In this document: positions 6,489 through 19,917 of the stretch, piece after piece
Layout: each line of letters begins with the position of its first letter
How positions within the stretch are numbered: the stretch's first letter is position 1
Source: a virus
Lineage: Duplodnaviria; Heunggongvirae; Uroviricota; Caudoviricetes
Direction: 5' to 3' (one strand)
DNA: 64,000 nt
Virus record (IMG/VR): IMGVR_UViG_3300043464_002177
Translations under genes and position numbers: made by a program
The notes under the pieces: generated by a model
Database searches by the model: none
Told to the model about the DNA's origin: nothing
The model's input: only the letters and a program-made list of their open reading frames with translations

Positions 6489-6503
6489 TAAAAAAAACAC
6501 ACT

Positions 6504-6683: not shown

Positions 6684-6940
6684 CGAAGACAGAATTTTAT
6701 CAGAAATATGGAGCGTATCTAGAAGCGGTTGCTGAGGATAATGCTGAGTATGGCGATCATTTGATTCTTCACCCAGAAGAAATTGATCTTGCTAGGAAGT
6801 ACCAGAAGGAAGGATTAAGTATTGTTTCTGTTCATGAGACGGAAGACGGCGAAGACTTCGTTGATATTTCGCAGCCATGTGATTTTGGTACGCAGCCATT
6901 TAAGTACGGGTATTACGCCGTAAACGTGGCGATTCATTAA
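6680..6940 (+). CDS. hypothetical protein
   Basis: ORF; ATGA overlap with upstream micro-gene suggests translational coupling; start embedded in CGTATGAC octamer. Confidence 0.5.
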   Translation: MTKTEFYQKYGAYLEAVAEDNAEYGDHLILHPEEIDLARKYQKEGLSIVSVHETEDGEDFVDISQPCDFGTQPFKYGYYAVNVAIH

Positions 6941-6958
6941 TTGTTACAAAAAAATATT

Positions 6959-6988
6959 TTTGTATTTTAAATAATTTTATTACTTTTG
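6959..6988 (+). promoter_or_regulatory. Host-type Bacteroidetes promoter (-33 TTTG 6959-6962; -7 TACTTTTG 6981-6988), duplicate of 6459-6488
   Basis: Same block as at 6441-6490, exactly 500 bp offset. Confidence 0.55.
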
Positions 6989-7009
6989 CTAAAACTTAAT
7001 AACGATCGT

Positions 7010-7816
7010 ATGACACAGTATCTTTCACAGTACAAAAACAAAGCCCAGGCTAAACGCGAAACTAGCTTGAGCTACCTAGGCGGAATTAACACCAGCTCAA
7101 AGATTGCAAAGGGGCTCAAGTATGACGAGATGACCTACATCCTGTACCTGGCACCTGCAGATCGCAGCGGCTATGAAGTTTGCCCAATGCGCAGCAAAGA
7201 ATGCACAGCAGCCTGCTTACATGAGAGCGGCCATAACAGGATTGACATCCATGAAAATGTTATCAATAAGGCCCGTATTACGAAGACGAAGTTATTCTTT
7301 GAGAATCGTCCTTTCTTCATGGGCTGGCTAGTGGATGAGATACGCAGCGCGCAGAGCAAAGCAATTGCTGCAGGCAAAAGCTTCAGCGTTCGTCTGAACG
7401 GTACTAGTGACCTAAGCCCTGAACAGTTTCACCTGGATGGGAAAAACATCCTGGAGATCTTTCCTGAAGTACAGTTCTATGATTATACCAAAGTATATAA
7501 CCGTACCAAGTTAACAAAGAAGTACAGCAACTATGACCTAACGTTTTCCTACAGTGGGACGAACGCTGTACAGTGCCAGGATGCATTGCTTCAGGATATC
7601 AGGGTCGCCGTAGTATTCGAAAAAGTTCCTGAACAGTTTTGGGGTAGACTAGTAATCGATGGAGATGCATACGATATGCGTTATCAGGACCAGGGCGGCG
7701 TGATCGTGGGCCTTAAGTATAAGAAGGTCCGCAATAAGCTTGAGCTCACTAAAAGCAAGTTCGTTATATCAGAAGAGAAACTTTTAAATAAATCTATTTC
7801 AAATGGAATATATTAA
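7010..7816 (+). CDS. hypothetical protein (269 aa)
   Basis: Track ORF 6986..7816 starts at TTG inside the -7 box; ATG at 7010 (MTQYLSQYK) inside CGTATGACACAG preferred. Confidence 0.5.
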   Translation: MTQYLSQYKNKAQAKRETSLSYLGGINTSSKIAKGLKYDEMTYILYLAPADRSGYEVCPMRSKECTAACLHESGHNRIDIHENVINKARITKTKLFFENRPFFMGWLVDEIRSAQSKAIAAGKSFSVRLNGTSDLSPEQFHLDGKNILEIFPEVQFYDYTKVYNRTKLTKKYSNYDLTFSYSGTNAVQCQDALLQDIRVAVVFEKVPEQFWGRLVIDGDAYDMRYQDQGGVIVGLKYKKVRNKLELTKSKFVISEEKLLNKSISNGIY

Positions 7817-8165
7817 ATATATCAACGACCTCAGGAATGAGCTACACAGAAAAATTGTATACCAGTCGATCTTAGCTCACCATCCAGGATCAGAATACGT
7901 CCTGGATCTTAACGAACCAGTCCAGGCGTTCTACACAGTGGCATCCAGGGAAACTGGTGAACCTAACGCAACCCAGGTTACAGTAACCGGGATTGATGGC
8001 TCAACCGGCGAGCTCATTGCAGCCACAGCGACCGGCATACGTAAGAAGTTATATTATAACGATCTTACTCTAGAACAGCTAGCCAGGTTATTACTTCACC
8101 TGGAAGCTAAATTATTCACAGTAACAGAATTTAAAAATGATAGAAACCTTATCACAGTTGGTTAG
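7803..8165 (+). CDS. hypothetical protein
   Basis: ORF in array. Confidence 0.5.
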   Translation: MEYIKYINDLRNELHRKIVYQSILAHHPGSEYVLDLNEPVQAFYTVASRETGEPNATQVTVTGIDGSTGELIAATATGIRKKLYYNDLTLEQLARLLLHLEAKLFTVTEFKNDRNLITVG

Positions 8166-8526
8166 AAAACCTAGCAAAGCTAGTGACCACGACCTTGAGC
8201 TTATTGGATGGAAAGAAAAACAAGCTAGAGTACTCAAGCACATGCAGCGAGATGAGAAGCTTATTCAGCTGCTAGAAGAATTCAAAGCCGTTAATGATCG
8301 TCTTAAGTTCTTTAGATCAAAGAACGACGTCAAAGTATACTTCTCGACTCAGGAGAAGGGCGGCGAAGAATATCTATACGCCCGCTGCTTCTTTAATATT
8401 GACGGGAAGCCCCGCGAGTTTAAGAAGTACCTGGGAATAGCGGATCAGGTGAATCCTGATCACCTGGACATGGGTGAGTTAAAAGAAATATTTTTAAGAA
8501 TGTTAAAAAATTATTTGGCATATTAA
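8137..8526 (+). CDS. hypothetical protein
   Basis: ORF in array. Confidence 0.45.
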   Translation: MIETLSQLVRKPSKASDHDLELIGWKEKQARVLKHMQRDEKLIQLLEEFKAVNDRLKFFRSKNDVKVYFSTQEKGGEEYLYARCFFNIDGKPREFKKYLGIADQVNPDHLDMGELKEIFLRMLKNYLAY

Positions 8527-8579
8527 AAATAAAATATAACTTGCCGGTGTATTACGAAAAAAGAGAAAACAACCAGTTC

Positions 8580-8594
8580 AAATAAAACTATTTT
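8580..8594 (+). promoter_or_regulatory. AAATAAAACTATTTT motif copy
   Basis: ttcaaataaaactattttaaatcATG at 8600. Confidence 0.5.
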
Positions 8595-8599
8595 AAATC

Positions 8600-8818
8600 A
8601 TGGAAGCATACAAGATTAAAGCGAATGAGGATTTTTGTGACCACCTGTTGCGTGTGATCAAAGATAACGGAACATGGGGATGGCCCGATCAACAGGTGAT
8701 CTTCGTAATACGCGGCGGGAAGATCCTAGGAGAAGCTGCGGCACTGGAAAAGGCTAAGACAATAGTTAGCCCTGAGTACTTCAAAAAAAATTTTGGAATA
8801 TTAAAAGAGAATTCTTAA
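8600..8818 (+). CDS. hypothetical protein
   Basis: ORF in array. Confidence 0.5.
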   Translation: MEAYKIKANEDFCDHLLRVIKDNGTWGWPDQQVIFVIRGGKILGEAAALEKAKTIVSPEYFKKNFGILKENS

Positions 8819-8838
8819 TTTTACAAAAAATAACAACT

Positions 8839-9084
8839 ATGGCAACGAAAATTCAAGACCCACAAACCTTTTGGAACAAGAAAGCTGCTGAAGTATTACG
8901 CGGCAAAACAATTGTAGAAGCTAGATACCTGAATGATAAGGAGATGGAGATGATGGGATGGTACAAACGCCCATTATGCTTTTTCCTGAACGACGGCACT
9001 TCATGCATTCTATCTATGGATGATGAAGGAAACGACGGCGGCGCATTATTCTATGGAAGTGACGGTGTATTACCTACCCTTTAA
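8839..9084 (+). CDS. hypothetical protein
   Basis: ORF in array. Confidence 0.5.
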   Translation: MATKIQDPQTFWNKKAAEVLRGKTIVEARYLNDKEMEMMGWYKRPLCFFLNDGTSCILSMDDEGNDGGALFYGSDGVLPTL

Positions 9085-9104
9085 TTTATATAAACTATAA
9101 TATC

Positions 9105-9302
9105 ATGATAACTCATCAAACAAAATTCGGAGAAGTTCAATTAAGAGTCGCAATGATTGACACTAATGGAACAGATTTATGTGAAGGCGTCGAAGTGAAA
9201 GTCGATGGCGAATTAATCGGAGAAGTTTTCGATGTTGATACAGATTACATTGAAGAAATGAGTGTTGAAGAAGTTGAAGAAATTGTAGAGAGTATTATCT
9301 AA
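9105..9302 (+). CDS. hypothetical acidic protein
   Basis: ORF in array. Confidence 0.45.
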   Translation: MITHQTKFGEVQLRVAMIDTNGTDLCEGVEVKVDGELIGEVFDVDTDYIEEMSVEEVEEIVESII

Positions 9303-9308
9303 CCTTTT

Positions 9309-9319
9309 AAATAAAACTA
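9309..9319 (+). promoter_or_regulatory. AAATAAAACTA motif copy
   Basis: ttttaaataaaactaactATG at 9323. Confidence 0.45.
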
Positions 9320-9322
9320 ACT

Positions 9323-9694
9323 ATGGCAAAGAAATTTAAAGTAAGGTTCAACCTGGGGAAAGGAAAGAACTACATGAAGTGGAAAGTAGAATCGGATGGA
9401 GAGTCCAACTACTACAGCCCTGAAGAATATAACCTGTATATGTACGGCTGCCAGTTGAAGAACCAGCGGGCTACTGCAAACAAGATTCACCAGGGAGCTA
9501 ACAAAGCTGTATGCGCCTGGATCTTGTGCGACACAATTCTGCTGGCACAAAACATCGAGCTTCCTGAAGCAAACACCAGGTTAACATATAACCCGCGTGT
9601 CAGGCCCAACTGGATGGCGGGAGATGTGCTCGCAGATAACGCTAACTTCGAAAGCATTTGGAGCGACGGTAGAAAATTATTCACAAATATTTAA
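9323..9694 (+). CDS. hypothetical protein
   Basis: ORF in array. Confidence 0.5.
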   Translation: MAKKFKVRFNLGKGKNYMKWKVESDGESNYYSPEEYNLYMYGCQLKNQRATANKIHQGANKAVCAWILCDTILLAQNIELPEANTRLTYNPRVRPNWMAGDVLADNANFESIWSDGRKLFTNI

Positions 9695-9706
9695 ATCTAT
9701 TTTAAA

Positions 9707-9997
9707 ATGGATGCATTAACTTTAAGTAATGAATATCTCGACAAGTATAAGTTCGAGATGTACACCAAAGCCGGCGATAACGCCTGCAGGTCAATTGTGC
9801 GCGCTGCGTGGAAAAAGCTGGACGGTACCAAAAGAGTTTCAGGGCAGGAGATGTTTGATTACGTAAAAGAAAGAATGGACGTAGTCAAAGCGAAACATCC
9901 TGAAGTATACGACACTGAGCCTAACTACCACATCTACCTGCTGGTGGCTAAGAAAGCAAAAGAGTATGAGTACGACTTCACACAATATTTTCAATAA
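9707..9997 (+). CDS. hypothetical protein
   Basis: ORF in array. Confidence 0.5.
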   Translation: MDALTLSNEYLDKYKFEMYTKAGDNACRSIVRAAWKKLDGTKRVSGQEMFDYVKERMDVVKAKHPEVYDTEPNYHIYLLVAKKAKEYEYDFTQYFQ

Positions 9998-10003
9998 GTT
10001 TCA

Positions 10004-10018
10004 AATAAAACTATTTTA
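10004..10018 (+). promoter_or_regulatory. AAATAAAACTATTTT motif copy
   Basis: gtttcaaataaaactattttaaaaATG at 10022. Confidence 0.5.
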
Positions 10019-10021
10019 AAA

Positions 10022-10273
10022 ATGGAAGCAGCATTAATAGGTGAAGAAACCATCCTGGTGTTTGTAATAATCACCCCGCCAGGAGAAGAACTGTTTGTTA
10101 CCTGGAACAAACATAACCACACTGAGAACAGACCGGACGCATTATCTTACATCCCGGAATATGTTGTTGAAGACAACTTAGAGAATGAACTTGAGCAGGG
10201 CTGTCAAGATTGGCTGGATGCTGTAGCTGCAGTAAAAGAATGGCAGGAGAAGCATAATGTGCAATTATATTAA
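10022..10273 (+). CDS. hypothetical protein
   Basis: ORF in array. Confidence 0.5.
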   Translation: MEAALIGEETILVFVIITPPGEELFVTWNKHNHTENRPDALSYIPEYVVEDNLENELEQGCQDWLDAVAAVKEWQEKHNVQLY

Positions 10274-10295
10274 AAACCAATTAAATTTAAATAAA

Positions 10296-10562
10296 ATGGA
10301 CAAAGTAGCAAAGTACAAGGCGGCTGCGCAAAGATGGGCAGCAAGATGGAAAGTTGAGGAGCAGCACGCAATAGATGTTGCAGCATCAATCTTGATGACT
10401 CGTGATAAAGTTCAAATGGGCGGAAGCTTCGCACAGGCGATTGTAGATAACAATCTACGTGAAGCGATCAACAGGGCGGATGATACCTGTATAAAGTATT
10501 TGAAGTTCTTCAGCATCATTAATTGGAACTGTGGTAGCTATGAAATCGAAAACGGACAGTAG
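10296..10562 (+). CDS. hypothetical protein (start at internal ATG after truncated motif)
   Basis: Track ORF 10257..10562; tttaaataaaATGgac at 10296 gives MDKVAKYK start without overlap. Confidence 0.45.
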   Translation: MDKVAKYKAAAQRWAARWKVEEQHAIDVAASILMTRDKVQMGGSFAQAIVDNNLREAINRADDTCIKYLKFFSIINWNCGSYEIENGQ

Positions 10563-10737
10563 GATGACCAGGGAGCAAATAGAAAGGAAGCTTGAGGATT
10601 TGAAATCACTTAAGCTTCCACAGCTAAACAAGAAAAGCAGAGCTCACCAGGACTGGAAGCGCGAGATGGAGAATCTCACCAGGCTTCTAGACACTGAGAT
10701 GGGTAAATTAAACAACCTTTTAAAAAGAACTATATGA
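10531..10737 (+). CDS. hypothetical protein (alternative non-overlapping start at 10564)
   Basis: ORF in array; ATG 10564 (MTREQIERK) lies just after upstream stop. Confidence 0.45.
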   Translation: MVAMKSKTDSRMTREQIERKLEDLKSLKLPQLNKKSRAHQDWKREMENLTRLLDTEMGKLNNLLKRTI

Positions 10738-11054
10738 AAGGAATATTCATAGACGCAAAGAATCGACAGGTAACTTATGTTAATACCAAAGCACAGCTGG
10801 AGGATCTTTACTTAATCCTTGGCGTCAATATGGTAGAGATCGGGAAGTACTGGGAGAACGGTGACACACTGTGGGTTGATGAGGAAGGATTAATTAACGG
10901 TACTGACTTCGGGTTCCAGGTTCAGGGATTAGAGTTCCTGGGCAATGGATTAATCCTGGGGACTAACAGGGAGAACCCTGAGGCTCACGACTCGGCCCTA
11001 ACAAAGATCGAGGACCTGAAGCTAAAGTTCTTTGAACTAGTCCCAGCAGTTTAA
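10734..11054 (+). CDS. hypothetical protein
   Basis: ORF in array; ATGA overlap. Confidence 0.5.
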   Translation: MKGIFIDAKNRQVTYVNTKAQLEDLYLILGVNMVEIGKYWENGDTLWVDEEGLINGTDFGFQVQGLEFLGNGLILGTNRENPEAHDSALTKIEDLKLKFFELVPAV

Positions 11055-11067
11055 AATAAAACTATTT
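11053..11067 (+). promoter_or_regulatory. AAAATAAAACTATTT motif copy
   Basis: tttaaaataaaactatttgaattATG at 11073. Confidence 0.5.
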
Positions 11068-11072
11068 GAATT

Positions 11073-11324
11073 ATGGAAAACAGTTACAGAGTTTTATGGG
11101 AGATAGATGTGGATGCGGCGGACGCTAAGGATGCTGCGCAACAGGCTTATGCTGCAATAGTGAGTGGTGCTGCACCGGTATTTGAAGTTCATCAATGGCG
11201 AGAACCGGAGATGATCCATATAGATCCGGTGGCCCTGGTGGATGTGAAGGACCTGTCGGCGGATCTACCTGTACCAGACAAAAGGATCATTACTGAAACC
11301 TATATGGGACCAGATATCATTTAA
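11073..11324 (+). CDS. hypothetical protein
   Basis: ORF in array. Confidence 0.5.
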   Translation: MENSYRVLWEIDVDAADAKDAAQQAYAAIVSGAAPVFEVHQWREPEMIHIDPVALVDVKDLSADLPVPDKRIITETYMGPDII

Positions 11325-11337
11325 AATAAAACTATTT
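11323..11337 (+). promoter_or_regulatory. AAAATAAAACTATTT motif copy
   Basis: tttaaaataaaactatttcaattATG at 11343; 23-mer nearly identical to copy at 11051. Confidence 0.5.
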
Positions 11338-11342
11338 CAATT

Positions 11343-11531
11343 ATGCACAAGACACTTGTTAAGATTTGGATCGATCAAAAGAAATCATCGATCAACTGGA
11401 AGATGAATATGGGATTGATCAATGTCAACTCAGCAACCGACCAGATCCAGCTCCTGGATGAATTGATCGACGACTTCAACCTGGAGGAGGTAACTGAAGA
11501 CCAGGATTACTTCATAGAAAAAAATTTTTGA
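11343..11531 (+). CDS. hypothetical protein
   Basis: ORF in array. Confidence 0.5.
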   Translation: MHKTLVKIWIDQKKSSINWKMNMGLINVNSATDQIQLLDELIDDFNLEEVTEDQDYFIEKNF

Positions 11532-11580
11532 TTCTAAGAAATAATTCTTAATTTTCCAGCTCAAACCAAAATTCATTCGT

Positions 11581-12213
11581 ATGACACAGACAATCAACCT
11601 AGGCCCAGAAGTTTATGTAACGGACCCTTGCTACAGTGTACCGACCTGGTGCCAAATCAAGCTTACCAATGTATTACCTGGTGAATGGATCGTATCAATG
11701 ATCTATGACGAAAAAGGCGGAAGCAACAGGAACGCTGAGCTCTACCTGGTCCACAAGGATTATCAGGGAAAGAATCTTCTGTATGACTGGGACTGGCTTG
11801 GGGACTTCGGCGTCGACAGCGGCCAGGCGGGAGTGTTTGATGCTGCGTCATACAGGAACGATGCATATGCTGCAGGTATTACAACACCTAAGTTAGATTT
11901 TGTGTATGAGTATTTTCAGGAAGGCGACATCTGGTATGAGAAGATGTGCAAGTTCACACTGGCGAACGACGGCTGGGGAGCATACGCAGCAGGTGCAGTA
12001 TCCAGCAGCGGCTATGGCGACGGAGAGTATCCAGTATACGGTGCTGAAGTTGACGGTAAGGTTGTAGCGCTTCAACTAGTGTTCATTGATCAATCCGCGG
12101 ATGACGATGAAGACCTGGAGGAGGACTGCTGCAATGAATGCGGGGCGGAACTAGAGTGGGACGGATCTTGTGACTACTGTGAGCACTTCAAGAATTCAAA
12201 GCTTGAAGATTAA
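11581..12213 (+). CDS. hypothetical protein with C-terminal Cys-rich zinc-ribbon-like motif
   Basis: ORF; start inside CGTATGACACAG; C-terminal CCNECGAELEWDGSCDYCEHF. Confidence 0.5.
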   Translation: MTQTINLGPEVYVTDPCYSVPTWCQIKLTNVLPGEWIVSMIYDEKGGSNRNAELYLVHKDYQGKNLLYDWDWLGDFGVDSGQAGVFDAASYRNDAYAAGITTPKLDFVYEYFQEGDIWYEKMCKFTLANDGWGAYAAGAVSSSGYGDGEYPVYGAEVDGKVVALQLVFIDQSADDDEDLEEDCCNECGAELEWDGSCDYCEHFKNSKLED

Positions 12214-12226
12214 ATAAAACTATTTC
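12213..12226 (+). promoter_or_regulatory. AAATAAAACTATTT motif copy
   Basis: gattaaataaaactatttcaaat; overlaps stop of previous ORF, 22 nt before ATG 12248. Confidence 0.45.
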
Positions 12227-12247
12227 AAATTCTTAAAACAAATCGAT

Positions 12248-12490
12248 ATGACTAAGAAGACTAAAGAACCGGTTCTAATCAAATGGGTTAAAATCGGAAT
12301 CAAGGAAAAGAAGAAGTGGGACACGAATCCGAAGTCCCCTCTAAATACAGCAGCGTGTCTCCAGTACCTGTACGACCGCTACGCTTACCAGATGTTTGAA
12401 GACGGGCTAACCCTCAACGACATTTTTTATGAAGCCAGGTTCTACTTCAAAAAGATCGGAATCACCGGCCGAGGTAAGAATCGCAAATAA
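12248..12490 (+). CDS. hypothetical basic protein
   Basis: ORF in array. Confidence 0.5.
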   Translation: MTKKTKEPVLIKWVKIGIKEKKKWDTNPKSPLNTAACLQYLYDRYAYQMFEDGLTLNDIFYEARFYFKKIGITGRGKNRK

Positions 12491-12499
12491 AACTATTTT
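12485..12499 (+). promoter_or_regulatory. AAATAAAACTATTTT motif copy
   Basis: Overlaps stop TAA 12488-12490; followed by weak hairpin TCCT-ccc-AGGA + T8 (12507-12525) then ATG 12569. Confidence 0.4.
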
Positions 12500-12568
12500 A
12501 AAATATTCCTCCCAGGATTTTTTTGTTCCAGTTTTTTTTCTTATATTATTTCATAAACAATAAATGTT

Positions 12569-12754
12569 ATGAAAAAGAACAGAACAACCAATTCCACCCC
12601 GCTAACTGTATACCAGGCAGTGGGACCAAACATCTACTTTGATGGTAACAGCTATCGAGTTCGTGTAATTGTTAAAGGTCAACGTTACTCTAAGAATCTA
12701 ACTTCGAAGAGAGCAGCTGTCCAATATCGCAATTCACTTCTTAAGACTGCTTAA
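12569..12754 (+). CDS. hypothetical protein
   Basis: Last ORF of the + array. Confidence 0.5.
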   Translation: MKKNRTTNSTPLTVYQAVGPNIYFDGNSYRVRVIVKGQRYSKNLTSKRAAVQYRNSLLKTA

Positions 12755-12781
12755 GAGATCAACAGTAGTAGGTTTGTTAAA

Positions 12782-12817
12782 TAAGGGAGAACATCAATAC
12801 GTCTCCCTTATTTTTTT
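12782..12817 (+). terminator. Rho-independent terminator ending the + strand array
   Basis: TAAGGGAGA / TCTCCCTTA 9-bp stem, 11-nt loop, followed by T7. Confidence 0.65.
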
Positions 12818-12836
12818 AACATTTAAATTCTGACGC

Positions 12837-12950
12837 ATGTATTACCTTCCAATCTGGCTCGAGTTCCTGATCTATGGAACAATTGTATTTTTCGCCATAG
12901 TAATGGTGAAGTACTGCTTCGATCTGATAAAGATCGTTAGGGAGAAGTAA
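12837..12950 (+). CDS. hypothetical 37-aa hydrophobic micro-protein (not in track)
   Basis: ATG 12837; MYYLPIWLEFLIYGTIVFFAIVMVKYCFDLIKIVREK; single predicted TM helix. Confidence 0.3.
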   Translation: MYYLPIWLEFLIYGTIVFFAIVMVKYCFDLIKIVREK

Positions 12951-12998
12951 CCAGATCTCCCATGTATTACCTGGACACCTGGGCGGGACAAGGAAAAT

Positions 12999-13014
12999 GA
13001 AATAAAACTATTTT
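12999..13014 (+). promoter_or_regulatory. GAAATAAAACTATTTT motif copy with no ORF downstream
   Basis: Followed by GC-rich palindromic sequence (AGCCGGCT) and a CGTATGAC copy; candidate sRNA promoter. Confidence 0.4.
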
Positions 13015-13052
13015 ATTTTTTAACCAGCCGGCTAGCCTGGCTCCCGGACACG

Positions 13053-13060
13053 CGTATGAC
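13053..13060 (+). repeat. CGTATGAC octamer copy (non-coding)
   Basis: acgCGTATGACacc. Confidence 0.5.
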
Positions 13061-13115
13061 ACCCCACCGATGAGCCTCATATATATGGGGCCTTTTCTTT
13101 TCCTGGATGTCAAGA

Positions 13116-13142
13116 GGCGCCGAGTCCTTTATACGAGGCGCC
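13116..13142. repeat. Hairpin family A copy 1: GGCGCC-[GAGTCCTTTATACGA]-GGCGCC
   Basis: 6-bp GC stem, 15-nt loop; loop near-identical to copy 2 while stem sequence differs but stays complementary. Confidence 0.55.
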
Positions 13143-13163
13143 GATCTATCCCACAAAAAATTG

Positions 13164-13171
13164 CGTATGAC
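13164..13171 (+). repeat. CGTATGAC octamer copy (non-coding)
   Basis: ttgCGTATGACatagg. Confidence 0.5.
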
Positions 13172-13206
13172 ATAGGGGACCCTCAGGGATCGCCACCTAA
13201 GATTTT

Positions 13207-13221
13207 AAATAAAACTATTTT
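13207..13221 (+). promoter_or_regulatory. AAATAAAACTATTTT motif copy with no ORF downstream
   Basis: Followed within 10 nt by CGTATGAC, then hairpin B1 (13255-13281); only an 11-codon ORF follows. Confidence 0.4.
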
Positions 13222-13229
13222 AAATTTCA

Positions 13230-13237
13230 CGTATGAC
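13230..13237 (+). repeat. CGTATGAC octamer copy (non-coding)
   Basis: ttcaCGTATGACgccc. Confidence 0.5.
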
Positions 13238-13247
13238 GCCCGGCCCA

Positions 13248-13290
13248 GTAGATCGGCCGCTCCCATAAAGGGGTCGCGGCCTCTTAGACA
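13248..13290. repeat. Hairpin family B copy 1: TAGATCG-GCCGC-TCCCATAAAGGGGTC-GCGGCC-TCTTAGACA
   Basis: Stem GGCCGC/GCGGCC 13255-13260/13276-13281; loop has inner CCC/GGG mini-stem; flanks and loop conserved with copy 2. Confidence 0.55.
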
Positions 13291-13344
13291 TCCCCGAATA
13301 TTTTGTTTAAGTATTACGCGCAAAAGTTAAACACTCAGTAACAC

Positions 13345-13352
13345 GTCATACG
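13345..13352 (-). repeat. CGTATGAC octamer copy, inverted orientation
   Basis: acacGTCATACGcgcg. Confidence 0.45.
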
Positions 13353-13372
13353 CGCGCGCCGCCGGAGGCAAA

Positions 13373-13401
13373 GCCCGCCGAGCCCTTCATGCGAGGCGGG
13401 C
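13373..13401. repeat. Hairpin family A copy 2: GCCCGCC-[GAGCCCTTCATGCGA]-GGCGGGC
   Basis: 7-bp GC stem, 15-nt loop matching copy 1 at 12/15 positions; stem covaries. Confidence 0.55.
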
Positions 13402-13482
13402 GTATTACATGAATATCAAGAAGAATTTTAGAATTTCAAAAAAATGTGGTCGTGATTCACACAAGGGACACTTCCTGGGTGG

Positions 13483-13511
13483 TTCCCACTTATTAACATT
13501 TTTTCCCACTT
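13483..13511. repeat. Direct repeat TTCCCACTT x2, 20-nt period
   Basis: ggTTCCCACTTattaacatttTTTCCCACTTtttg. Confidence 0.4.
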
Positions 13512-13880
13512 TTTGTGATTGTAATACAGGGAGCCCAAAAAAGTAGGGCTACAGGGGGTAATATCGCCAATAAATTTAGTACGATAGACGATGTACCTAA
13601 AATGGCAGTAAAATATATGTTTATTTATATAAATGTAGTCAATTTGTCATGGTCATAAAACCATAATACCTACTTCTTTTTTTTAGCTTTTGCTACCTTA
13701 ATTTTGTTAACAGTATGCTTCTGACCAAGATTATCAAGGAAGAGTTCACCTATAAAATAGAATAAAACTACACCTAAAGGAAAAAGGAATGTGCTCATAA
13801 TTTCAAGTTTTAATATGCAAAATTAATTATTAATATCCATACTACCAAATCTATTGTGCAAAATGTAGAGCATTTGTTGT

Positions 13881-13920
13881 GCCAAATTCGGAAGTAAAAA
13901 CGCGCCAAAGTCGGAAGTAA
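13881..13920. repeat. Direct repeat GCCAAAnTCGGAAGTAA x2, 21-nt period
   Basis: GCCAAATTCGGAAGTAAaaacgcGCCAAAGTCGGAAGTAAttag. Confidence 0.45.
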
Positions 13921-13921
13921 T

Positions 13922-13960
13922 TAGATCGCCCCTCCCCATAAAGGGGTGAGGGGCTCATAG
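13922..13960. repeat. Hairpin family B copy 2: TAGATCG-CCCC-TCCCCATAAAGGGGTGA-GGGGC-TCATAGAAC
   Basis: Stem GCCCC/GGGGC 13928-13932/13950-13954; same conserved flanks and loop as B1 with compensatory stem change; abuts 3' end of - strand ORF 13955..14137. Confidence 0.55.
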
Positions 13961-14137
13961 AACACCGAGGTTATCTATATGTTTTTCGATTAGATCTTCT
14001 GTTAGATCATCTTCATACATGAGTTCTAGAACCTTACCATTAAACATAGGGGAAGTTACCTTATGGTATATTACTTCACCTTCAGGATCTAGAATGGTCT
14101 CCAGATATACTTTAAACTTACCAATGATTTTTTCCAT
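13955..14137 (-). CDS. hypothetical protein
   Basis: First ORF of the - strand block. Confidence 0.45.
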   Translation of the reverse strand: MEKIIGKFKVYLETILDPEGEVIYHKVTSPMFNGKVLELMYEDDLTEDLIEKHIDNLGVL

Positions 14138-14157
14138 ATTATGATTTTAATAATTGT

Positions 14158-14487
14158 CTATAATAGCTTCATCATCCTTAGGGTTCTCTCATATCTTTCA
14201 TTAGCTGTTTCCTTCTTTTTCACCTTAGGCCAATCCTTTTTAAACCATGGTCTATTATAGGAATCTGAATAATAGTGATATAGAAATCCGTTAGATCTAA
14301 GCATTTGTTTTATGGCATCTGCTTTAGCATATGGTTTTTCTAGCTCATCAAAAGATCTTTTAATATCTATCTTTACTATGAGCTGGTTATCATATTTCTC
14401 ATATACTTCTACCTTTGTAAGTAAATACATACCATCCATCTCTGTATAGGGTTTCAGGTATTCTAGTATTTCTTTGTTGCTTTTCAT
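14158..14487 (-). CDS. hypothetical protein
   Basis: ORF in - strand block. Confidence 0.5.
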   Translation of the reverse strand: MKSNKEILEYLKPYTEMDGMYLLTKVEVYEKYDNQLIVKIDIKRSFDELEKPYAKADAIKQMLRSNGFLYHYYSDSYNRPWFKKDWPKVKKKETANERYERTLRMMKLL

Positions 14488-14527
14488 ATGGTATTAGTGT
14501 GTGTTGTAATATAAATCCTTAATAGAT

Positions 14528-15022
14528 TTATTGTTTAGTTTTTAAAAAATTATAAACATTATCCTTAATTGCTTGCGGTAAATCAGATTCAAGTAAAATC
14601 CAACTTAGGTAACGATCGTCATTTATTTCATCTATGTATTTTCCAGCATACTTACCGAAACTAAAATAATATACATCTGATCTATCTGTTTTAATATTAT
14701 CTATACATTTATTTACCGAAAGGGGTCGCCAGTGTGGATGATAACGATTTGAAAATTTGTTTTTATCAATCATAAGATTATACCCAGCATTTGTTTTCTT
14801 GACAGCAACAGCAAAGATTTCATCCTTTTTATGTTTATCTTCGTGATATGTTGCTAATTCAGTTAATATCTCTATATGATCATCATTAGTTATTTTTTGT
14901 GGATGCCAAGGTTTTTGTACATCATTAGGTTCGGGGGTTACATAATTGGTTTCCAATATTGATTTAATGAGGGTTTTAATATCATCTTTGCTGATGTACT
15001 TTTTATTACCAAGTGTGTACAT
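14528..15022 (-). CDS. hypothetical protein
   Basis: ORF in - strand block. Confidence 0.5.
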   Translation of the reverse strand: MYTLGNKKYISKDDIKTLIKSILETNYVTPEPNDVQKPWHPQKITNDDHIEILTELATYHEDKHKKDEIFAVAVKKTNAGYNLMIDKNKFSNRYHPHWRPLSVNKCIDNIKTDRSDVYYFSFGKYAGKYIDEINDDRYLSWILLESDLPQAIKDNVYNFLKTKQ

Positions 15023-15075
15023 AATGTTTTTGTTTATGAATACTAATATATGAGATTAATTCCGGATTTGCAAAT

Positions 15076-15471
15076 TTAAGAATGACCTATAAGGTATTCA
15101 TCCTTATCTTCTTCTTTATTTCCATATGCTAGTACAGAGGGAAGACCACTATATTCACAATATAGTTCTTCTCTTTGTCTTTTCATTTCTTCCTTAACTT
15201 CTTCTGGGAAATAGATACCATCGCTTTCCATATCAGCCATTGTTCTATGCATAGCTTTGTATACTAGGTCCTTTTGTTTAAAGGTCATTTTCTTGGAAGC
15301 TACTTCGTTGTCAAATAGTCTACCTACGAAGTTTACCATATCGGCTCTTGGTCCGGTTTCCTTTACGTATTTGTATGGGGTCTTTGCCATATGCATCATT
15401 TCTCTATAGGTGGCAATTCCGAATACTGCGAATAGGGTAACAACGATAGCTGTTAGTAATATGATATCCAT
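15076..15471 (-). CDS. hypothetical membrane-anchored protein
   Basis: N-terminal hydrophobic helix MDIILLTAIVVTLFAVFGIATY. Confidence 0.5.
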   Translation of the reverse strand: MDIILLTAIVVTLFAVFGIATYREMMHMAKTPYKYVKETGPRADMVNFVGRLFDNEVASKKMTFKQKDLVYKAMHRTMADMESDGIYFPEEVKEEMKRQREELYCEYSGLPSVLAYGNKEEDKDEYLIGHS

Positions 15472-15650
15472 TATTTCTTAGATTTAAGGTTGATGTATAT
15501 TAAGAATCCTAGTATGGTTGGAGGCCACAGTCCAATGAAGATTGCTTTGTTTGCATCTCCGTCTACAATGTAGTGGTATTCACTTACGAAGATCACTACT
15601 ACTGTAACGATTAGGATCAGGATTTCTGATGTCTTGAAGTTCTTGAGCAT
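15471..15650 (-). CDS. hypothetical 59-aa membrane micro-protein (not in track)
   Basis: ATG 15650 (reverse); MLKNFKTSEILILIVTVVVIFVSEYHYIVDGDANKAIFIGLWPPTILGFLIYINLKSKK; TAATG overlap with downstream ORF. Confidence 0.35.
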   Translation of the reverse strand: MLKNFKTSEILILIVTVVVIFVSEYHYIVDGDANKAIFIGLWPPTILGFLIYINLKSKK

Positions 15651-15713
15651 ATATTTTAAGTTTTAGAATTCAAAATTAAACAATAATATCCATACTGGCA
15701 AATAAAATATTAA

Positions 15714-15742
15714 ATAAAAAAACCGGGTGTTTATTCCGGTTT
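15714..15742 (-). terminator. Rho-independent terminator (- strand)
   Basis: AACCGG/CCGGTT stem with A7 run on + strand; 15 nt after 3' end of ORF 15731..16306. Confidence 0.55.
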
Positions 15743-16306
15743 GTCTATTTTATTTAAAATCCTGGTATATTTCTTTATTTGTGAGTTATAAAATTCTAGA
15801 TAGTCAACCAGTCTTTCTGGACTTATATGTTTACTTTTGAGTGACCTCAATTTCATTTCATTATAAGAGTTTATCATATCTTGAAGCTTCTCTCTCCTAT
15901 TTATTTCTTTTGGTCCGTCAGGATCGTATCCATAAACATTCTTCATAAAATGTTTAACTTTCGCCTCCGGATCTATGGTTTTACTGTTAGGTGTTGCATA
16001 ATAACCGCCAGATGTGCTTTCCAATATGGCACTGGAAATTTCATTATTACCGAACTCTTTTCTAGCCCATTTAACAATTTCCTTTCCAACCGTATCTTTA
16101 TCCTTTAAGATTTCCATTAGAGGTTCCCAGAATCTAGGACTTACAAAAAGGTTCTTTCCTCTGGTAAATCTCATGATATGTTCTTCGGTATAATCAAAAT
16201 AATCTATAGTACCGCCTCTGTTATTTGAATCATAAGGGGCTCTACCATCAAAGTAATCTTCAACAGGGTTTGATTTTCCTTCCTCAATAATATCTATTAG
16301 TTTCAT
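15731..16306 (-). CDS. hypothetical protein
   Basis: ORF. Confidence 0.5.
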   Translation of the reverse strand: MKLIDIIEEGKSNPVEDYFDGRAPYDSNNRGGTIDYFDYTEEHIMRFTRGKNLFVSPRFWEPLMEILKDKDTVGKEIVKWARKEFGNNEISSAILESTSGGYYATPNSKTIDPEAKVKHFMKNVYGYDPDGPKEINRREKLQDMINSYNEMKLRSLKSKHISPERLVDYLEFYNSQIKKYTRILNKIDKPE

Positions 16307-16315
16307 AAGTATAAT

Positions 16316-16702
16316 TTAAGCTTGTTTTAAATTGGTCTTATCAAAGATTAGGATATTCAATCCATTTTCGAACCCATCATAATTCTTGGACATTAGGAAT
16401 TTGATTAACTCAGGGGTTGGCTGATAGATATATTCTTCATTATCGGTCATGGGGTCAAATGAATTAACAAGAGCTTCCCATTCAGAATGGTTATATACCA
16501 CATCTACTATATTAAGATTGGTGGGCATAAGGTATTTTGTAACTTCACCATACTCGGATGCAAATTCCTCATCTTCACTTACCCATATAGAATCCCCAAC
16601 ATGTTCATGGTTCTGTCCTCTATAAACTTCTGTGTAAGTTGGATGGGAGACATCCTCCATATCTTCTAATATATCTATCAATTTCATACTGATAAATATC
16701 AA
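16316..16702 (-). CDS. hypothetical protein
   Basis: ORF. Confidence 0.5.
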   Translation of the reverse strand: MIFISMKLIDILEDMEDVSHPTYTEVYRGQNHEHVGDSIWVSEDEEFASEYGEVTKYLMPTNLNIVDVVYNHSEWEALVNSFDPMTDNEEYIYQPTPELIKFLMSKNYDGFENGLNILIFDKTNLKQA

Positions 16703-17160
16703 TTAAACCAGCTTGGTATATCTCTATGTTTCCAGGTGGAGAATGTTCTTTTCTCTCCCATATAATAATCTCTATAGGACTGTACATGGTTGATAGACTT
16801 ATACTCGTCCGGCATAGCCAAAGCTGGTGGGGTGAACTTTACATCTGGTATATTGGGATGGTTATCACAACACCATAGGATAGTATCAAATGACTTATGG
16901 GTCTTTCCATATCTGTGCTTATATTCATAACATAGATGCACGCCCAGTTCACATAACCAGATATAGTTATGCAGATCTTGTCTGGTCCATTTCGCACTAG
17001 GATGGTTTACGTGGGATAACTTATAGGGAGCTTGACCACCGGTTGCCCAATGAGCGCCACATAATAACTGAGCCGTTTCCAAGATCATTTTAACCACATG
17101 CTTATCATTATGATATTGAGCACATTTGATTGGAGACTTGTCCAAATAGAAAATATTCAT
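16699..17160 (-). CDS. pyrimidine-dimer DNA glycosylase (T4 endonuclease V / Pyr_excise family)-like protein
   Basis: N-terminus MNIFYLD..P..CAQYHNDKHVVKMILETAQLL and H..W.....L..Y.WL.ELG.HLC.EY.HRYG pattern match my recollection of bacterial endonuclease-V-type homologues; alignment by eye only. Confidence 0.45.
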   Translation of the reverse strand: MNIFYLDKSPIKCAQYHNDKHVVKMILETAQLLCGAHWATGGQAPYKLSHVNHPSAKWTRQDLHNYIWLCELGVHLCYEYKHRYGKTHKSFDTILWCCDNHPNIPDVKFTPPALAMPDEYKSINHVQSYRDYYMGEKRTFSTWKHRDIPSWFN

Positions 17161-17172
17161 ATAGTTTTATTT
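17161..17172 (-). promoter_or_regulatory. AAATAAAACTAT motif (reverse complement) abutting ATG of 16699..17160
   Basis: catATAGTTTTATTTtaaa on + strand. Confidence 0.45.
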
Positions 17173-17178
17173 TAAATG

Positions 17179-18339
17179 TTAGTTAATTCTGATTAGTTTC
17201 TTATCCCTGAGTTCCCATCTAATGAAACTCTGAGTACCATTTACCATACTGAATAGATCCACCTTACCATTATTATCATAGTCCTGGAATCTTAGCCAAG
17301 TTACCCAATTATGTCTACCAATATGGTTTACGGAATTATTCTCTATTAAACGATTGGTCATGTCCATGAATTCTTGATTATCCATTTTAAGAACTTGAAT
17401 ATACCACCCATCATAGAAGAATTGATTATATCCATTTCCTCCGGCTCTGTTTAGTATTAGTTCATTGACACCATCATTATCCAAATCATATACATCAATA
17501 TCGGTTATTACCCCATATCCATTTACCTTTGGGATTATGCTTTTTTGATTATAAGTGTAAGTATTATTCCCCCAATATACCCTGGTATTTGTTTCAAACT
17601 CATGACCGCCCATGATTAAATCCAGATATCCATCTTTGTTTATATCGATTAGTTCACAGGTATATTGGTTATCAATATCATTTATATTAATCTGGGTGGT
17701 TGAATAGGTAAAGTTACCTTTGCCATCATTGATTAGAAAGTATGAGAACATCTTATTAAGAACAAATATATCCAGATCACCATCTTTATCAATATCCCCG
17801 GAAGTGGCAGCATGATAGAAACCCACCTTTTCCTTGAATTCCTTTACATCATATTTTCCATTTGGACTGGATATGATTAGTTGAGCATGTTCGCCAGGCC
17901 ATGGATCATTGTCATATCCATGAGCGGCCACAAATATATCTGGGCGTTTGTCATTATTAAAATCCCCGGTGATTGCTTTCCTTGGGTGATAAAACGATGG
18001 AACTGTATTGAAGTATGTATTGTCCGGAATGTAGTCACCGTTTTTATATATATAAAACTGCGATGGGGTCTTTTCATTCTTTCCGTTGGTTGAACTGGTG
18101 AATATATCATCATGACCATCCCCGTTTATATCCAAGAATGCCACAGCAAATATCTCCCATGAACTATTGTTTCCATATCTGGATCTTAAACCATGAATAT
18201 CTATGGTTATATTTGATTGCTGAAGATGATATGACGGAAGATTGTAGTCTTTAACCACCGGCTCAGGTAATGGAACCACCGGGAGAGTCTCTTCCTTGCT
18301 ACAGGAAAACAATAATAATACCCACACCAATCTTTTCAT
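17179..18339 (-). CDS. FG-GAP/VCBS-repeat beta-propeller surface lipoprotein
   Basis: Start at MKRLVWVLLLFSCSKEE (lipobox LFSC plus Cys+2..+4 SKEE resembling the Bacteroidetes surface-lipoprotein export signal); five D-x-[DN]-x-D-G-x-x-[DE]-[LI]-[FI] repeats (DINGDGHDDIF, DIDKDGDLDIF, DINKDGYLDLI, DLDNDGVNELI, DYDNNGKVDLF). Confidence 0.55.
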   Translation of the reverse strand: MKRLVWVLLLFSCSKEETLPVVPLPEPVVKDYNLPSYHLQQSNITIDIHGLRSRYGNNSSWEIFAVAFLDINGDGHDDIFTSSTNGKNEKTPSQFYIYKNGDYIPDNTYFNTVPSFYHPRKAITGDFNNDKRPDIFVAAHGYDNDPWPGEHAQLIISSPNGKYDVKEFKEKVGFYHAATSGDIDKDGDLDIFVLNKMFSYFLINDGKGNFTYSTTQININDIDNQYTCELIDINKDGYLDLIMGGHEFETNTRVYWGNNTYTYNQKSIIPKVNGYGVITDIDVYDLDNDGVNELILNRAGGNGYNQFFYDGWYIQVLKMDNQEFMDMTNRLIENNSVNHIGRHNWVTWLRFQDYDNNGKVDLFSMVNGTQSFIRWELRDKKLIRIN

Positions 18340-18434
18340 TTTGCTATATGTTTCTGCAAATGTAGAGATTATTCTTGATATCACAAAAAAATATTCGCCA
18401 CCCATCTATATATGTGGTGTGAATTTTTGGTAAA

Positions 18435-19157
18435 TTAACCCCAGTAACCGTGAGATTTTAGGTAGAAATCAGGGTTGTTTCTGTTAAACCAGCACTTGAT
18501 CATTAAGGAAATCATATAAAACAATCCCTTATTTTTGAATCTTCTGGCTGATGTATATGCCCCATTTGTTTTATGTATGGTAAATAAAGGTGCCCATACC
18601 TTATTGCTAATATAATAATCCTCGGCGAATACTTGCTCTGGAACATATTCACCAGCGTTTCTATATACTTCTGTATTAAACAACTGGAACCCACCTATAG
18701 CAAAAGAAGAACCGAAATACTTCATCACCCTTTGAACAAATGTGAATATATCATATATCCAATTATAACCATAGTCGGTTGATAGGGTAACCGTGGTAAG
18801 TTGCTTTGTCTTTGCTAGTGTATCAAATATGATATTGGTGTCGTGTAGTAATATGTCAGCATCCAGGAATAAAACATAATCAGTTTCAACCATTCTACCA
18901 CCGGCATATCTTCCGTAAGCTGGATAACCACCTTTAATAACCTCAATGTTTAAACAATATCTGAAATCAATTGTGATCTTCTTAAGAAACTCTAATGATG
19001 TAACATTATCTGATATGTCAGCAATGATTACTCTTGTTCCGGCAATACCTCTTTGTCTGGATATATTATATACACAATCGTATAGAGTTCTGCTCTCGTT
19101 TTTACTTGGAATGACGATAGTAAGCCTATCTTTTATATTTGTAAACATGGTATTCAT
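18435..19157 (-). CDS. family-2 (GT-A fold) glycosyltransferase
   Basis: LTIVIPSKNESRTLYDCV and downstream LFLDADILL (DxD) motifs. Confidence 0.5.
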   Translation of the reverse strand: MNTMFTNIKDRLTIVIPSKNESRTLYDCVYNISRQRGIAGTRVIIADISDNVTSLEFLKKITIDFRYCLNIEVIKGGYPAYGRYAGGRMVETDYVLFLDADILLHDTNIIFDTLAKTKQLTTVTLSTDYGYNWIYDIFTFVQRVMKYFGSSFAIGGFQLFNTEVYRNAGEYVPEQVFAEDYYISNKVWAPLFTIHKTNGAYTSARRFKNKGLFYMISLMIKCWFNRNNPDFYLKSHGYWG

Positions 19158-19818
19158 TGTTATCGAAGACTATAAATGAATTATTTTCAATCCAGTCCCC
19201 ACAATTTAAATATCTAATACCATCAATCATTCTATCTTCAGGATGGTGAATGTGCCCAGAAATCACATTAACGCAATGATGTTTCTTTGCCTGTCTAACT
19301 AATTCGGTTTCATATTGTGTAATAAACTTCACAGCCTCTTTTACTTTACTCTTTAAGAACTTGGATAAAGATCTTTTCATCCCCAGCTTCTTTAAAAATC
19401 TATCAATGGATATTGCTGCATCATATCCAACTGATCCAAGAACACCTAACCACTTCAATTTAACCACACCATCATATAAATCACCATGAGTAATAAAGGT
19501 ATTCTTCCATACATACTCATTATGAATCTCCACGTTTCCAAAAAAGAATTCCCCGTACTCTCTTAGAAACTGATCATGGTTACCCGGAATATAAATCACT
19601 TTACATCCGTTCTTTGAATGAGATAAGATCTTTCTTAGTACATTGGTGTGTGATTGTGGCCAACGAAACTTTCGTTTTAATAACCAACCATCAATGATAT
19701 CACCAACAAGAAACAAATGTTTGGGCTGGTAGGTTTTAAGAATTTCAAGGACTTCATTTGCGTTAGATCCTTTCGAGCCCAAATGGACATCCGAGATAAA
19801 CAATGCTTCTACTTTCAT
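19126..19818 (-). CDS. LpxH-family metallophosphoesterase (UDP-2,3-diacylglucosamine diphosphatase-like)
   Basis: Colinear with E. coli LpxH motifs: LFISDVHLG / VGDIIDGW / IPGNHDQF / HGDLY / SGHIHHPE / CGDWIENNSFIVF. Confidence 0.55.
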   Translation of the reverse strand: MKVEALFISDVHLGSKGSNANEVLEILKTYQPKHLFLVGDIIDGWLLKRKFRWPQSHTNVLRKILSHSKNGCKVIYIPGNHDQFLREYGEFFFGNVEIHNEYVWKNTFITHGDLYDGVVKLKWLGVLGSVGYDAAISIDRFLKKLGMKRSLSKFLKSKVKEAVKFITQYETELVRQAKKHHCVNVISGHIHHPEDRMIDGIRYLNCGDWIENNSFIVFDNNEYHVYKYKR

Positions 19819-19865
19819 TGTATATAAATATCCAATTAATATTCCGTAATGTTAATATAATATTA

Positions 19866-19895: not shown

Positions 19896-19917
19896 ATATC
19901 ATATTGTAGTTTGTATT

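Follow-up and report, generated by a model that had tools for sequence, protein, structure and literature searches.

The stretch analysed here, the window, comprises 64,000 nucleotides (nt) of the IMG/VR virus record IMGVR_UViG_3300043464_002177 (Caudoviricetes), an uncultured freshwater phage whose host apparently belongs to the Bacteroidota. Plus-strand genes reach position 12754 and minus-strand genes end at 13955, so the interval between them is a convergent junction; that both gene arrays end here had already been said in an earlier note on this DNA, made from the sequence alone. The junction has four components: stem-loop units of about 45 nt, rich in guanine and cytosine (GC), with semi-conserved flanks and alternating orientation; a cluster of the heptamer GTAT[G/T]AC; a core block of 84 base pairs (bp); and a pair of 17-nt direct repeats. 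The best-supported account of this locus is that of a conserved cis-acting junction whose hairpins keep their shape, and whose units keep their place and the direction in which they face the invariant core, while the sequence turns over. The features on which this account is built are the following, with y denoting the A orientation and x the B orientation.

13112–13148, plus strand (y): unit A1, AAGA-GGCGCC-GAGTCCTTTATACGA-GGCGCC-GATCTA, with stem 13116–13121/13137–13142; covariance-model match of 35.2 bits, E 4e-7.
13249–13285, minus strand (x on the plus strand): unit B1, with stem 13255–13260/13276–13281; model match of 37.7 bits on the minus strand.
13369–13408, plus strand (y): unit A2, with stem 13373–13379/13395–13401 and GTATTAC directly after it, facing the core block from the left.
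13922–13960, minus strand (x on the plus strand): unit B2, with stem 13928–13934/13948–13954; z = −3.3, model match of 38.6 bits; it begins at the stop codon of the last gene of the minus array (13955–14137) and faces the core block from the right.
13445–13528: core block of 84 bp, with the palindrome GTGATTCAC (13452–13460), CCCAC boxes at 13485–13489 and 13505–13509, and GTAATAC at 13521–13527.
13881–13920: two 17-nt direct repeats, GCCAAA(T/G)TCGGAAGTAA, 23 bp apart and kept in relatives.

The four hairpins exceed chance by a wide margin, lie where the earlier note had placed them and fold as it predicted, with predicted folding energies of −18 to −22 kcal/mol. In a scan of the whole 64-kb window for perfect GC-rich hairpins (stem of at least 6 bp, loop of 3–20 nt) they make up 4 of the 8 distinct hairpins found. 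The remaining four are like ordinary terminators and carry T-rich tails, except for the one at 29284, where an A-run lies on the opposite side instead. In A1, A2, B1 and B2 the tail is GATCTA or GTATTAC, and a U/T-tract directly 3' of the stem is absent from all four. Unlike the other GC-rich hairpins of this phage, they are therefore not standard intrinsic terminators.

The proposed split of these hairpins into two families, A and B, did not survive comparison of the copies. A repeat finder aligned 13112–13148 with 13249–13285 at 78% complementarity over 37 nt, flanks included, and on one strand all four copies align as AAGA / stem / GA-NN-CCTTTAT-NN-GA / stem / GATCTA. Families A and B are thus a single family in two orientations, with A1 and A2 on the plus strand and B1 and B2 on the minus strand, and from left to right the window carries A1 (y), B1 (x) and A2 (y), then the conserved block and B2 (x).

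No Rfam family reached its gathering threshold anywhere in the 64 kb. A CRISPR repeat or an anti-CRISPR RNA mimic was rejected, as the best Rfam match, CRISPR-DR28, stayed below threshold at 20.8 bits against 35 (E 1.1). Sites of the attC kind and the ends of IS200/IS605 elements were set aside as well, since neither an integrase nor a transposase was found among the open reading frames (ORFs) scanned, a part of all ORFs. The 3' flanks of x units resemble boxA (TCTTAGACA at 13282–13290 in the window, TCTTAAACA in L024 and L040), a resemblance seen post hoc; the boxA of rrn and nut antitermination sites is GCTCTTTAACAA. We do not regard the units as boxA-boxB elements of the lambda nut or rrn kind, given that the boxA-like flank was picked out after the fact and lies at the wrong end of the operon.

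Diverged copies were drawn from related contigs, numbered here as loci (L012 and so on). Near-identical contigs (99.9–100%) are present in several metagenomes, and those with an identical 164-amino-acid (aa) neighbour protein are clones of the window and uninformative on covariation. Homologues of that protein occur only on short contigs; L012 (92% identical) still gave the first diverged hairpin, an orthologue of B2, together with a stretch nearly identical to window positions 13445–13520. A 20–27-mer from this shared stretch, used as a probe, led to one diverged IMG/VR lineage and to further metagenome lineages, and a 61-aa protein encoded beside the junction, used as an anchor, led to two more. 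Gene-level DNA identity of the relatives to the window runs from about 96% down to about 70%. An IMG/VR scan with the family-B pattern returned a single match, inside a gene and attributable to chance, and a scan of bacterial genomes for a 20-mer of the core gave three chance matches only, with no prophage or host found. In a search of cultured-phage DNA, the interval and the first 25 kb of the window had no match.

Covariation was measured on 16 distinct window-type copies from about six related metagenomic lineages, a gapless set that mixes paralogues and orthologues and was trimmed to 5 + 15 + 5 nt; the structure tested was (((((..((.......))..))))). Standard pairs fill 96.4% of cells, compared with 61.4% in shuffles, changes on both sides occur in 7 of 7 pairs, and the covariation score of 0.788 (0.183 in shuffles) was reached by none of 500 shuffles. 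Sliding the partner by one to three columns lowered pairing to 30–66%. Two inner pairs within what had been called the loop also covary (G-C/C-G and U-A/C-G), and each unit is therefore built of an outer stem and a short inner helix, which are separated by a GA/GA internal loop and capped by an apical loop of 7 nt. These results support the view that the stems are constrained to stay complementary, and the compensatory change that the earlier note had read from the copies of one genome is thereby borne out. A covariance-model search, which that note had proposed, found in the window only the four junction copies (E ≤ 4e-7) and, across 182 kb of window and relatives, copies only inside homologous junctions.

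How far the sequence has turned over depends on the distance between relatives. Among close relatives (90–96% identity) the four hairpins are unchanged except for one loop substitution in L021. At the B2 position of L032, in a neighbourhood that is 96% identical, the loop is kept and the stem and flanks are wholly different, while the B2 orthologue of L012 has an identical stem and a different loop. In L022/L033, L031, L016/L034, L041 and L035/L020, hairpins stand at the same relative positions with unrelated stems and often unrelated loops; the genes of lineages that have replaced hairpin sequences at kept positions are 70–76% identical. A conserved loop on a variable stem, as first described, is therefore true within one genome but not between lineages, where the loops change too. 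Compensatory change can also be followed between individual orthologues. From L016 to L041, hairpin H1 passes from GGGACTC/GAGTCCC to GGGGCTC/GAGCCCC (A-T to G-C), and H4 and H5 both pass from TCGACC/GGTCGA to CCGACC/GGTCGG (T-A to C-G). The flanks of distant lineages read GCTCG...CTCGC (x) or GCGAG...CGAGC (y). Some of these units, such as GCGAG-CCCGC-GACCCCTTTATGGGGG-TGGG-CGAGC of L033, keep the window-type loop inside flanks of this second style, and both flank styles therefore belong to one family.

The layout of the units is more constant than their sequence. With a slash for the block, their order is y x y / x in the window, x y x y / x in L016 and L041, y x x y / x in L024 and L040 (the L024 contig ends before the right side) and x y x y / x x in L033 and L031. 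All lineages read have a y unit directly to the left of the block and one or more x units to its right, so that its neighbours on both sides face it. Extra units also occur, one with a GNRA loop to the right of the block in L012, L031 and L033 and one after B2 in L023. The locus is a clean natural case of a nucleic-acid structure that stays constant through complete sequence turnover, in a fixed layout around an invariant core.

The core itself (GTGGTCGTGATTCACACAAGG...TTCCCAC-N13-TTCCCAC-TTTT...TTGTAATACA) is near-invariant across lineages whose genes are only about 70–75% identical in DNA. In L040 the spacer differs, yet the two CCCAC boxes remain 20 bp apart. We rejected the core as a gene because a 1-nt indel shifts its frame between lineages, and as an RNA because its consensus fold is weak on both strands. 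Given this near-invariance, the frameshift and the weak consensus fold, we regard the core as a DNA site. Several relatives have a canonical minus-strand terminator directly to its right.

A packaging or genome-end role, one of those suggested for the interval, gained no supporting signal. Many contig ends do cluster at the edges of the core, and contigs that overlap stop to the left or to the right of one block of about 100 nt shared by co-occurring diverged strains. Two contigs begin at the identical base, and an 80.6-kb contig lacks a terminal repeat of that sequence. We infer that these ends are breaks of the assembly graph at sequence shared among strains, and on this basis a physical genome end at the core was rejected.

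Several observations bear on the strand that folds. The collected hairpins include five wobble pairs (L033 h2, L031 h2, L033/L022 h4, the GCAA unit of L035/L020, and L033 h5). All five are G.T on the plus strand left of the block or on the minus strand right of it, and would be A.C mismatches on the reverse strand, a pattern with a chance of about 1 in 32 and hence modest evidence. To the right of the block, the hairpin carries a GNRA loop on the minus strand in four lineages (GAAA, GAGA, GCAA), with differing stems, and the window copies are 0.7–3.4 kcal/mol more stable in the y orientation. Taken together, wobbles, loops and stabilities point, modestly, to folding of one defined single strand, as RNA or single-stranded DNA, and not to a symmetric cruciform.

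The second sequence signal of the junction is the heptamer, which we list with a motif, M, that accompanies it.

219–13527, plus strand (27 of 33 copies): domain of the heptamer GTAT[G/T]AC, of which the interval is the right-hand boundary.
13000–13015, plus strand: M1, an orphan copy of the start-codon-proximal motif AAATAAAACTATTTTA.
13207–13237, plus strand: M2, motif M followed by GTATGAC, upstream of the next hairpin.
1477, 1996, 8580, 10003, 11054, 11324, 12212, 12485, 13000, 13207 and others, plus strand: sites of motif M (AAATAAAACTAT).

All 33 heptamers (14 GTATGAC, 19 GTATTAC) lie between 219 and 13527, and none occurs on either strand of the other 50 kb; these two words are the most extreme 7-mers of the window for being frequent on the left and absent on the right. 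They are densest at the junction, where 12 copies in both orientations fall within 12839–13527, and GTATTAC or GTAATAC comes immediately after several of the hairpins. The copies of CGTATGAC reported earlier (9 in the window, where 0.8 would be expected; the interval has 4 of the 9) are real and form part of this wider signal. In the other 50 kb, TATGAC/TATTAC occurs 69 times, never after G, and GTATGA/GTATTA 63 times, never before C; a maximal-order Markov model expects 7.1 heptamers there, against 0 observed. The expectation for the antisense strand alone (2.35) is too low to tell a DNA from an RNA reading. Codon usage is not the explanation, since GTATTAC occurs in all three reading frames and TATKAC, common on the right (69), is never preceded by G there. 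The context of the heptamer is Y-GTATKAC-(not T), with nothing further conserved.

The distribution of the heptamer is alike in all relatives. In L043, which reaches 4.8 kb past the start of the window, the plus array starts at a divergent junction and the heptamers start only with it (none in 1–3814, present from 3815 onward). The limits of the heptamer domain thus match those of the gene module, and the junction is its right-hand boundary and densest part. A literature search for the heptamers matched only primer sequences. Another 7-mer, GGAGAAG, has nine copies on the plus strand of the left module (1–13530) and none elsewhere in the window on either strand.

Motif AAATAAAACTATTTTA has 14 copies in the window against 0.9 expected. 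In the form AAATAAAACTAT(N0-10)ATG it fronts most start codons of the plus array, and the stop codon of the gene before frequently falls within it. Its placement suggests a signal, specific to the phage, for translation initiation or for cassette junctions; a promoter was rejected because the distance to ATG varies from 0 to 10 nt and the motif sits downstream of host-type promoters. The interval holds two orphan copies, M1 and M2. A tiny ORF that follows M2 is not conserved among relatives and was not accepted as a gene.

The gene that adjoins the junction on the left encodes a candidate DNA-binding protein.

12569–12754, plus strand: last gene of the plus array, encoding a 61-aa basic protein with a predicted fold like those of AP2 and integrase arm-binding domains.

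This gene is kept at the end of the plus array in all lineages, and its product is 69–95% identical in 38 clusters, far above its neighbours. A three- to four-stranded antiparallel sheet packed on a C-terminal helix is predicted, with AP2 domains and the N-domains of the HPI and Tn916 integrases as best structural matches. At the sequence level, no AP2 or arm-DNA-binding Pfam match was found among 30 homologues scanned, even at E ≤ 10, and no PDB sequence matched. AP2 domains and the arm-type domains of tyrosine integrases share the predicted sheet-on-helix fold and read short repeated DNA words, which makes the 61-aa protein a candidate trans-acting binder of the heptamer or core DNA. In relatives, a gene for 239–294 aa located between this gene and the junction has no family match.

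Tentatively, with a probability of about 0.35, we favour a reading in which each of the two converging transcription domains ends in strand-specific stem-loops, which insulate a protein-binding core. The units would act as single-stranded stem-loops on the sense strand of the incoming array, which is plus to the left of the core and minus to its right; there they would create or shield the 3' ends of transcripts and would prevent transcription from entering the core. Proteins would bind the DNA of the core and probably that of the heptamers, with the adjacent AP2-like 61-aa protein as the obvious candidate reader. The proposal of 3'-end stem-loops is favoured by the constraint on the stems, the signs of strand-specific folding, the convergence of the arrays, the start of B2 at a stop codon, the facing of the core by the units nearest to it and the minus-strand terminator that several relatives have directly right of the core. 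The anatomy of the locus, the conservation of structure, the asymmetry between strands and the distribution of the heptamer are demonstrated by the sequences. We infer that the folded molecule is RNA, and the role of the core and the pairing of proteins with sites are put forward on the same footing. Compared with intrinsic terminators, the units are alike in being GC-rich stem-loops, in the position of B2 directly after a stop codon and in a T6-tailed orthologue in L024 and L040, and unlike them in having no U-tract and in a loop of 13–15 nt with an inner helix, which is unusual for terminators.

Several points weigh against this reading. The terminator scan found no U-tract on the four units, and termination activity is a proposal only. 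A strong terminator stands at 12819, and no host-type plus-strand promoter was found between it and the core, so plus-strand transcription of A1, B1 and A2 is an assumption of this reading. An RNA 3'-end role does not require flanks of alternating orientation, and in some lineages the first unit after the last plus gene has the 'wrong' orientation. Two hairpins of L035 have TTCG loops on the strand opposite to that given by the GNRA rule. The sequences used for the pair counts were picked and trimmed by eye as hairpins, which inflates the covariation score, and template-switch correction of quasi-palindromes can keep perfect arms without selection.

A replication origin, which the earlier note had listed first, is unlikely in our view. 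In such an origin the core, with its CCCAC boxes, and the AT-rich stretch next to it would serve initiator binding and unwinding, the heptamers and 17-nt repeats would be iterons and the hairpins priming signals. Consistent with this are the near-invariant core, whose direct repeats are spaced by about two helical turns and which adjoins a stretch of 30% GC, the many short repeats in both orientations, the change of folding strand between hairpins left and right of the core, and the nearby gene for a small DNA-binding protein (predicted fold). Three relatives even have a perfect DnaA box at the same junction position.

L016 at about 4668–4677, L041 at about 6384–6392 and L035 at about 2527–2535: DnaA box TGTGGATAA.

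The window, however, has no perfect DnaA box, only TATCCCACA (13146–13154), and the AT-rich part is interrupted by a lineage-specific insertion. The arrays converge on the site, so departing forks would meet transcription head-on, and no replication gene was recognised nearby among the ORFs scanned. The GC-skew check suggested for an origin gave a cumulative maximum, not a minimum, at about 13 kb, a weak test here because skew follows gene strand in this genome. The closest comparison is with ssiA and ssiB of RSF1010, single-strand initiation hairpins of a plasmid origin. The junction shares with them two opposite-strand hairpins, conserved flanks and an adjoining AT-rich repeat region; unlike there, no primase or initiator gene was identified here, and skew and transcription geometry argue against an origin.

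The alternating orientation of the units suggests another comparison, with repetitive extragenic palindromes and bacterial interspersed mosaic elements (REP/BIME). In enterobacteria these are GC-rich extragenic palindromes that form alternating clusters, often between converging genes, and whose arms stay complementary while drifting; proposed roles are as protectors of mRNA 3' ends and as gyrase or IHF sites. By analogy, the units would be locally amplified, exchangeable palindromes whose complementarity is kept by copying, which survive in an intergenic zone that tolerates them, and which either are topoisomerase or nucleoid-protein sites at a convergent junction or have no function. Units are gained, lost and swapped in close relatives (the extra units of L012 and of L023 after B2, the new B2 stem of L032), copies within one genome share the apical sequence, and H4 and H5, a pair of copies, differ between L016 and L041 by the same changes. 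The units are nevertheless confined to one region, with no copy elsewhere in the 64 kb or in about 120 kb of flanks of relatives, and their positions and orientation to the core are kept across lineages, which would not be expected of selfish spread. No transposase was recognised and no RAYT-type gene was seen among about 60 ORFs scanned, a part of all ORFs. REP/BIME occur as hundreds of dispersed copies, as opposed to 4–6 at one phage locus arranged around a conserved core, and their GTAG is found here only 4 nt before the B1 stem, the other units having TTAG or ATAG. We consider this explanation improbable.

More speculative, and doubtful as a joint claim, is that the junction is the boundary element of a genome-domain marking system, hitherto undescribed, in large freshwater phages. 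The heptamer would be enriched on the sense strand of one module of about 14 kb and purged from the rest of the genome; it would be read by a stand-alone AP2-like protein, a nuclease or a polymerase, so that the module might be switched off, destroyed, insulated or handled separately, and the hairpin-bracketed invariant core would be a stop or anchor point. Bacterial chromosomes mark domains with short words such as matS and KOPS, and a heptamer confined to one module with an AP2-like protein beside it suggests that phage genomes may mark a functional domain by a short word. If true, this would open a testable route to how early gene expression is timed or compartmentalised.

Small structured RNAs or a cluster of short transcription units, also among the earlier suggestions, have part of the evidence behind them, yet we think them improbable. 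The unit of M2, GTATGAC and hairpin could be an RNA of about 60–90 nt or a tiny ORF, and it is compatible with a short transcript; this layout is kept in five lineages (L022/L033, L031, L024, L040), and in L024 and L040 the hairpin that follows M2-GTATGAC has a terminator-like T6 tail. In three lineages the ATG within GTATGAC opens a frame of 8–11 codons that ends at a TAA in the loop, at a distance of 24, 27 or 33 nt from ATG to TAA. The peptides are not conserved, however, and the frame differs in L022, L031 and L033. Neither an Rfam match nor a host-type plus-strand promoter was found inside the interval, and motif M behaves as a start-codon-proximal signal with variable spacing, not as a promoter.

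It is very unlikely that the junction signals the boundary of a step of DNA entry or of a terminal repeat, in the manner of the untranslated repeat region (iss) behind the pre-early genes of phage T5: although the heptamer domain ends exactly at the junction and the junction matches the description of T5 repeat region 3 (Davison, bioRxiv 10.1101/866236) in following small early genes and in being more conserved than neighbouring genes, there is no sequence similarity, the window lacks the paired DnaA boxes by which the T5 region is defined, the plus module is internal, with a divergent junction and more minus genes to its left, the junction lies about 60 kb from the end in a 324-kb contig, and no terminal repeat was detected in the 80.6-kb relative. 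The T5 injection stop region has eight DnaA boxes, in pairs within the inverted repeats IRC/IRD, inside the left terminal repeat (bioRxiv 10.1101/866236).

No described element that we found combines the features of this junction, and each ingredient is of a known kind, namely palindromic units, untranslated repeat regions and AP2-like binders. The cis-acting signals of large uncultured freshwater phages are an almost unexplored field.

Proteins of the window match phage families, including thymidylate synthase, a GP88-family protein, DUF3846, a PcfJ-like protein, an M23 peptidase and a T4 endoV-like glycosylase. The related contig L040 (Ga0620987_00297) is 324,361 nt long; its junction lies about 60 kb from the contig end, and the genes around it stand in the same order as in the window. 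With a relative of this size, the family may be jumbo phages. The further minus genes beyond the divergent junction of L043 show that the plus array is an internal module of about 14 kb, and its small genes are probably early or host-takeover genes. The window has 13 sites of the form TTTG-N17-21-TAnnTTTG, which we take to be the Bacteroidota promoter consensus, most of them upstream of correctly oriented genes, and it is from these matches that the Bacteroidota host is deduced. They also suggest that host polymerase would transcribe both arms from promoters of this type.

447, 2326, 3360, 6459 and 6959, plus strand; 13849, 15702, 18387, 26784, 29771 and 34913, minus strand; and others: sites of TTTG-N17-21-TAnnTTTG.

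Within the interval itself, three further features lie outside the four components.

12779–12819, plus strand: canonical intrinsic terminator of the plus array, a 12-bp perfect stem followed by a T-run; −17.1 kcal/mol, z = −4.4.
13074–13101, plus strand: second hairpin like an intrinsic terminator, with a T-rich tail (13074–13091 in the terminator scan).
13654–13851, minus strand: insertion present in the window and L023 only, with a hydrophobic, Lys-tailed 42-aa ORF (13670–13798); outside the conserved element.

The first of these is the terminator that had been placed at 12782–12817, and it is genuine; the terminator scan of the interval found only 13074–13091 and 12863–12880. The direct repeats that had been noted are likewise real (13881–13897 and 13904–13920). 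As for the GC-rich island that the interval was said to form, its GC content (0.406) does exceed that of the right flank (0.34 in 13955–20000) but not that of the left (0.42 in 7001–12754), in a window that is AT-rich overall (about 0.32). The interval is also internally uneven: only 12950–13450 (0.48) and 13901–13960 (0.57) are GC-rich, and 13546–13900 is AT-rich (0.30).

The interval is mostly non-coding, as had been proposed. ORF 13070–13330, already suspected to be an artefact, is Arg/Pro-rich (12 R, 9 P), has no family match and is broken by a 7-nt deletion in a relative that is about 90% identical; not being conserved among relatives, it was rejected as a gene. The description as non-coding fails for the insertion at 13654–13851, which is missing from L021, L025, L027, L032, L031 and L033. 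A Bacteroidota-type promoter at 13849–13818, which resembles the promoter at 15702, precedes the 42-aa ORF, and with an ORF that has its own promoter the interval is not wholly non-coding.

Two minor observations concern other parts of the sequence. Between B1 and A2, an AT-rich quasi-palindrome (TGTTTAA...TTAAACA) with GTATTAC occupies 13303–13335 and is kept in L033 at about 650–690. Far from the junction, ARAGORN calls a 91-nt tRNA-Arg(CCG) at 62106–62196 on the minus strand, within a 634-aa ORF (60298–62202); either the call is wrong or the tRNA is an unusual, long one.

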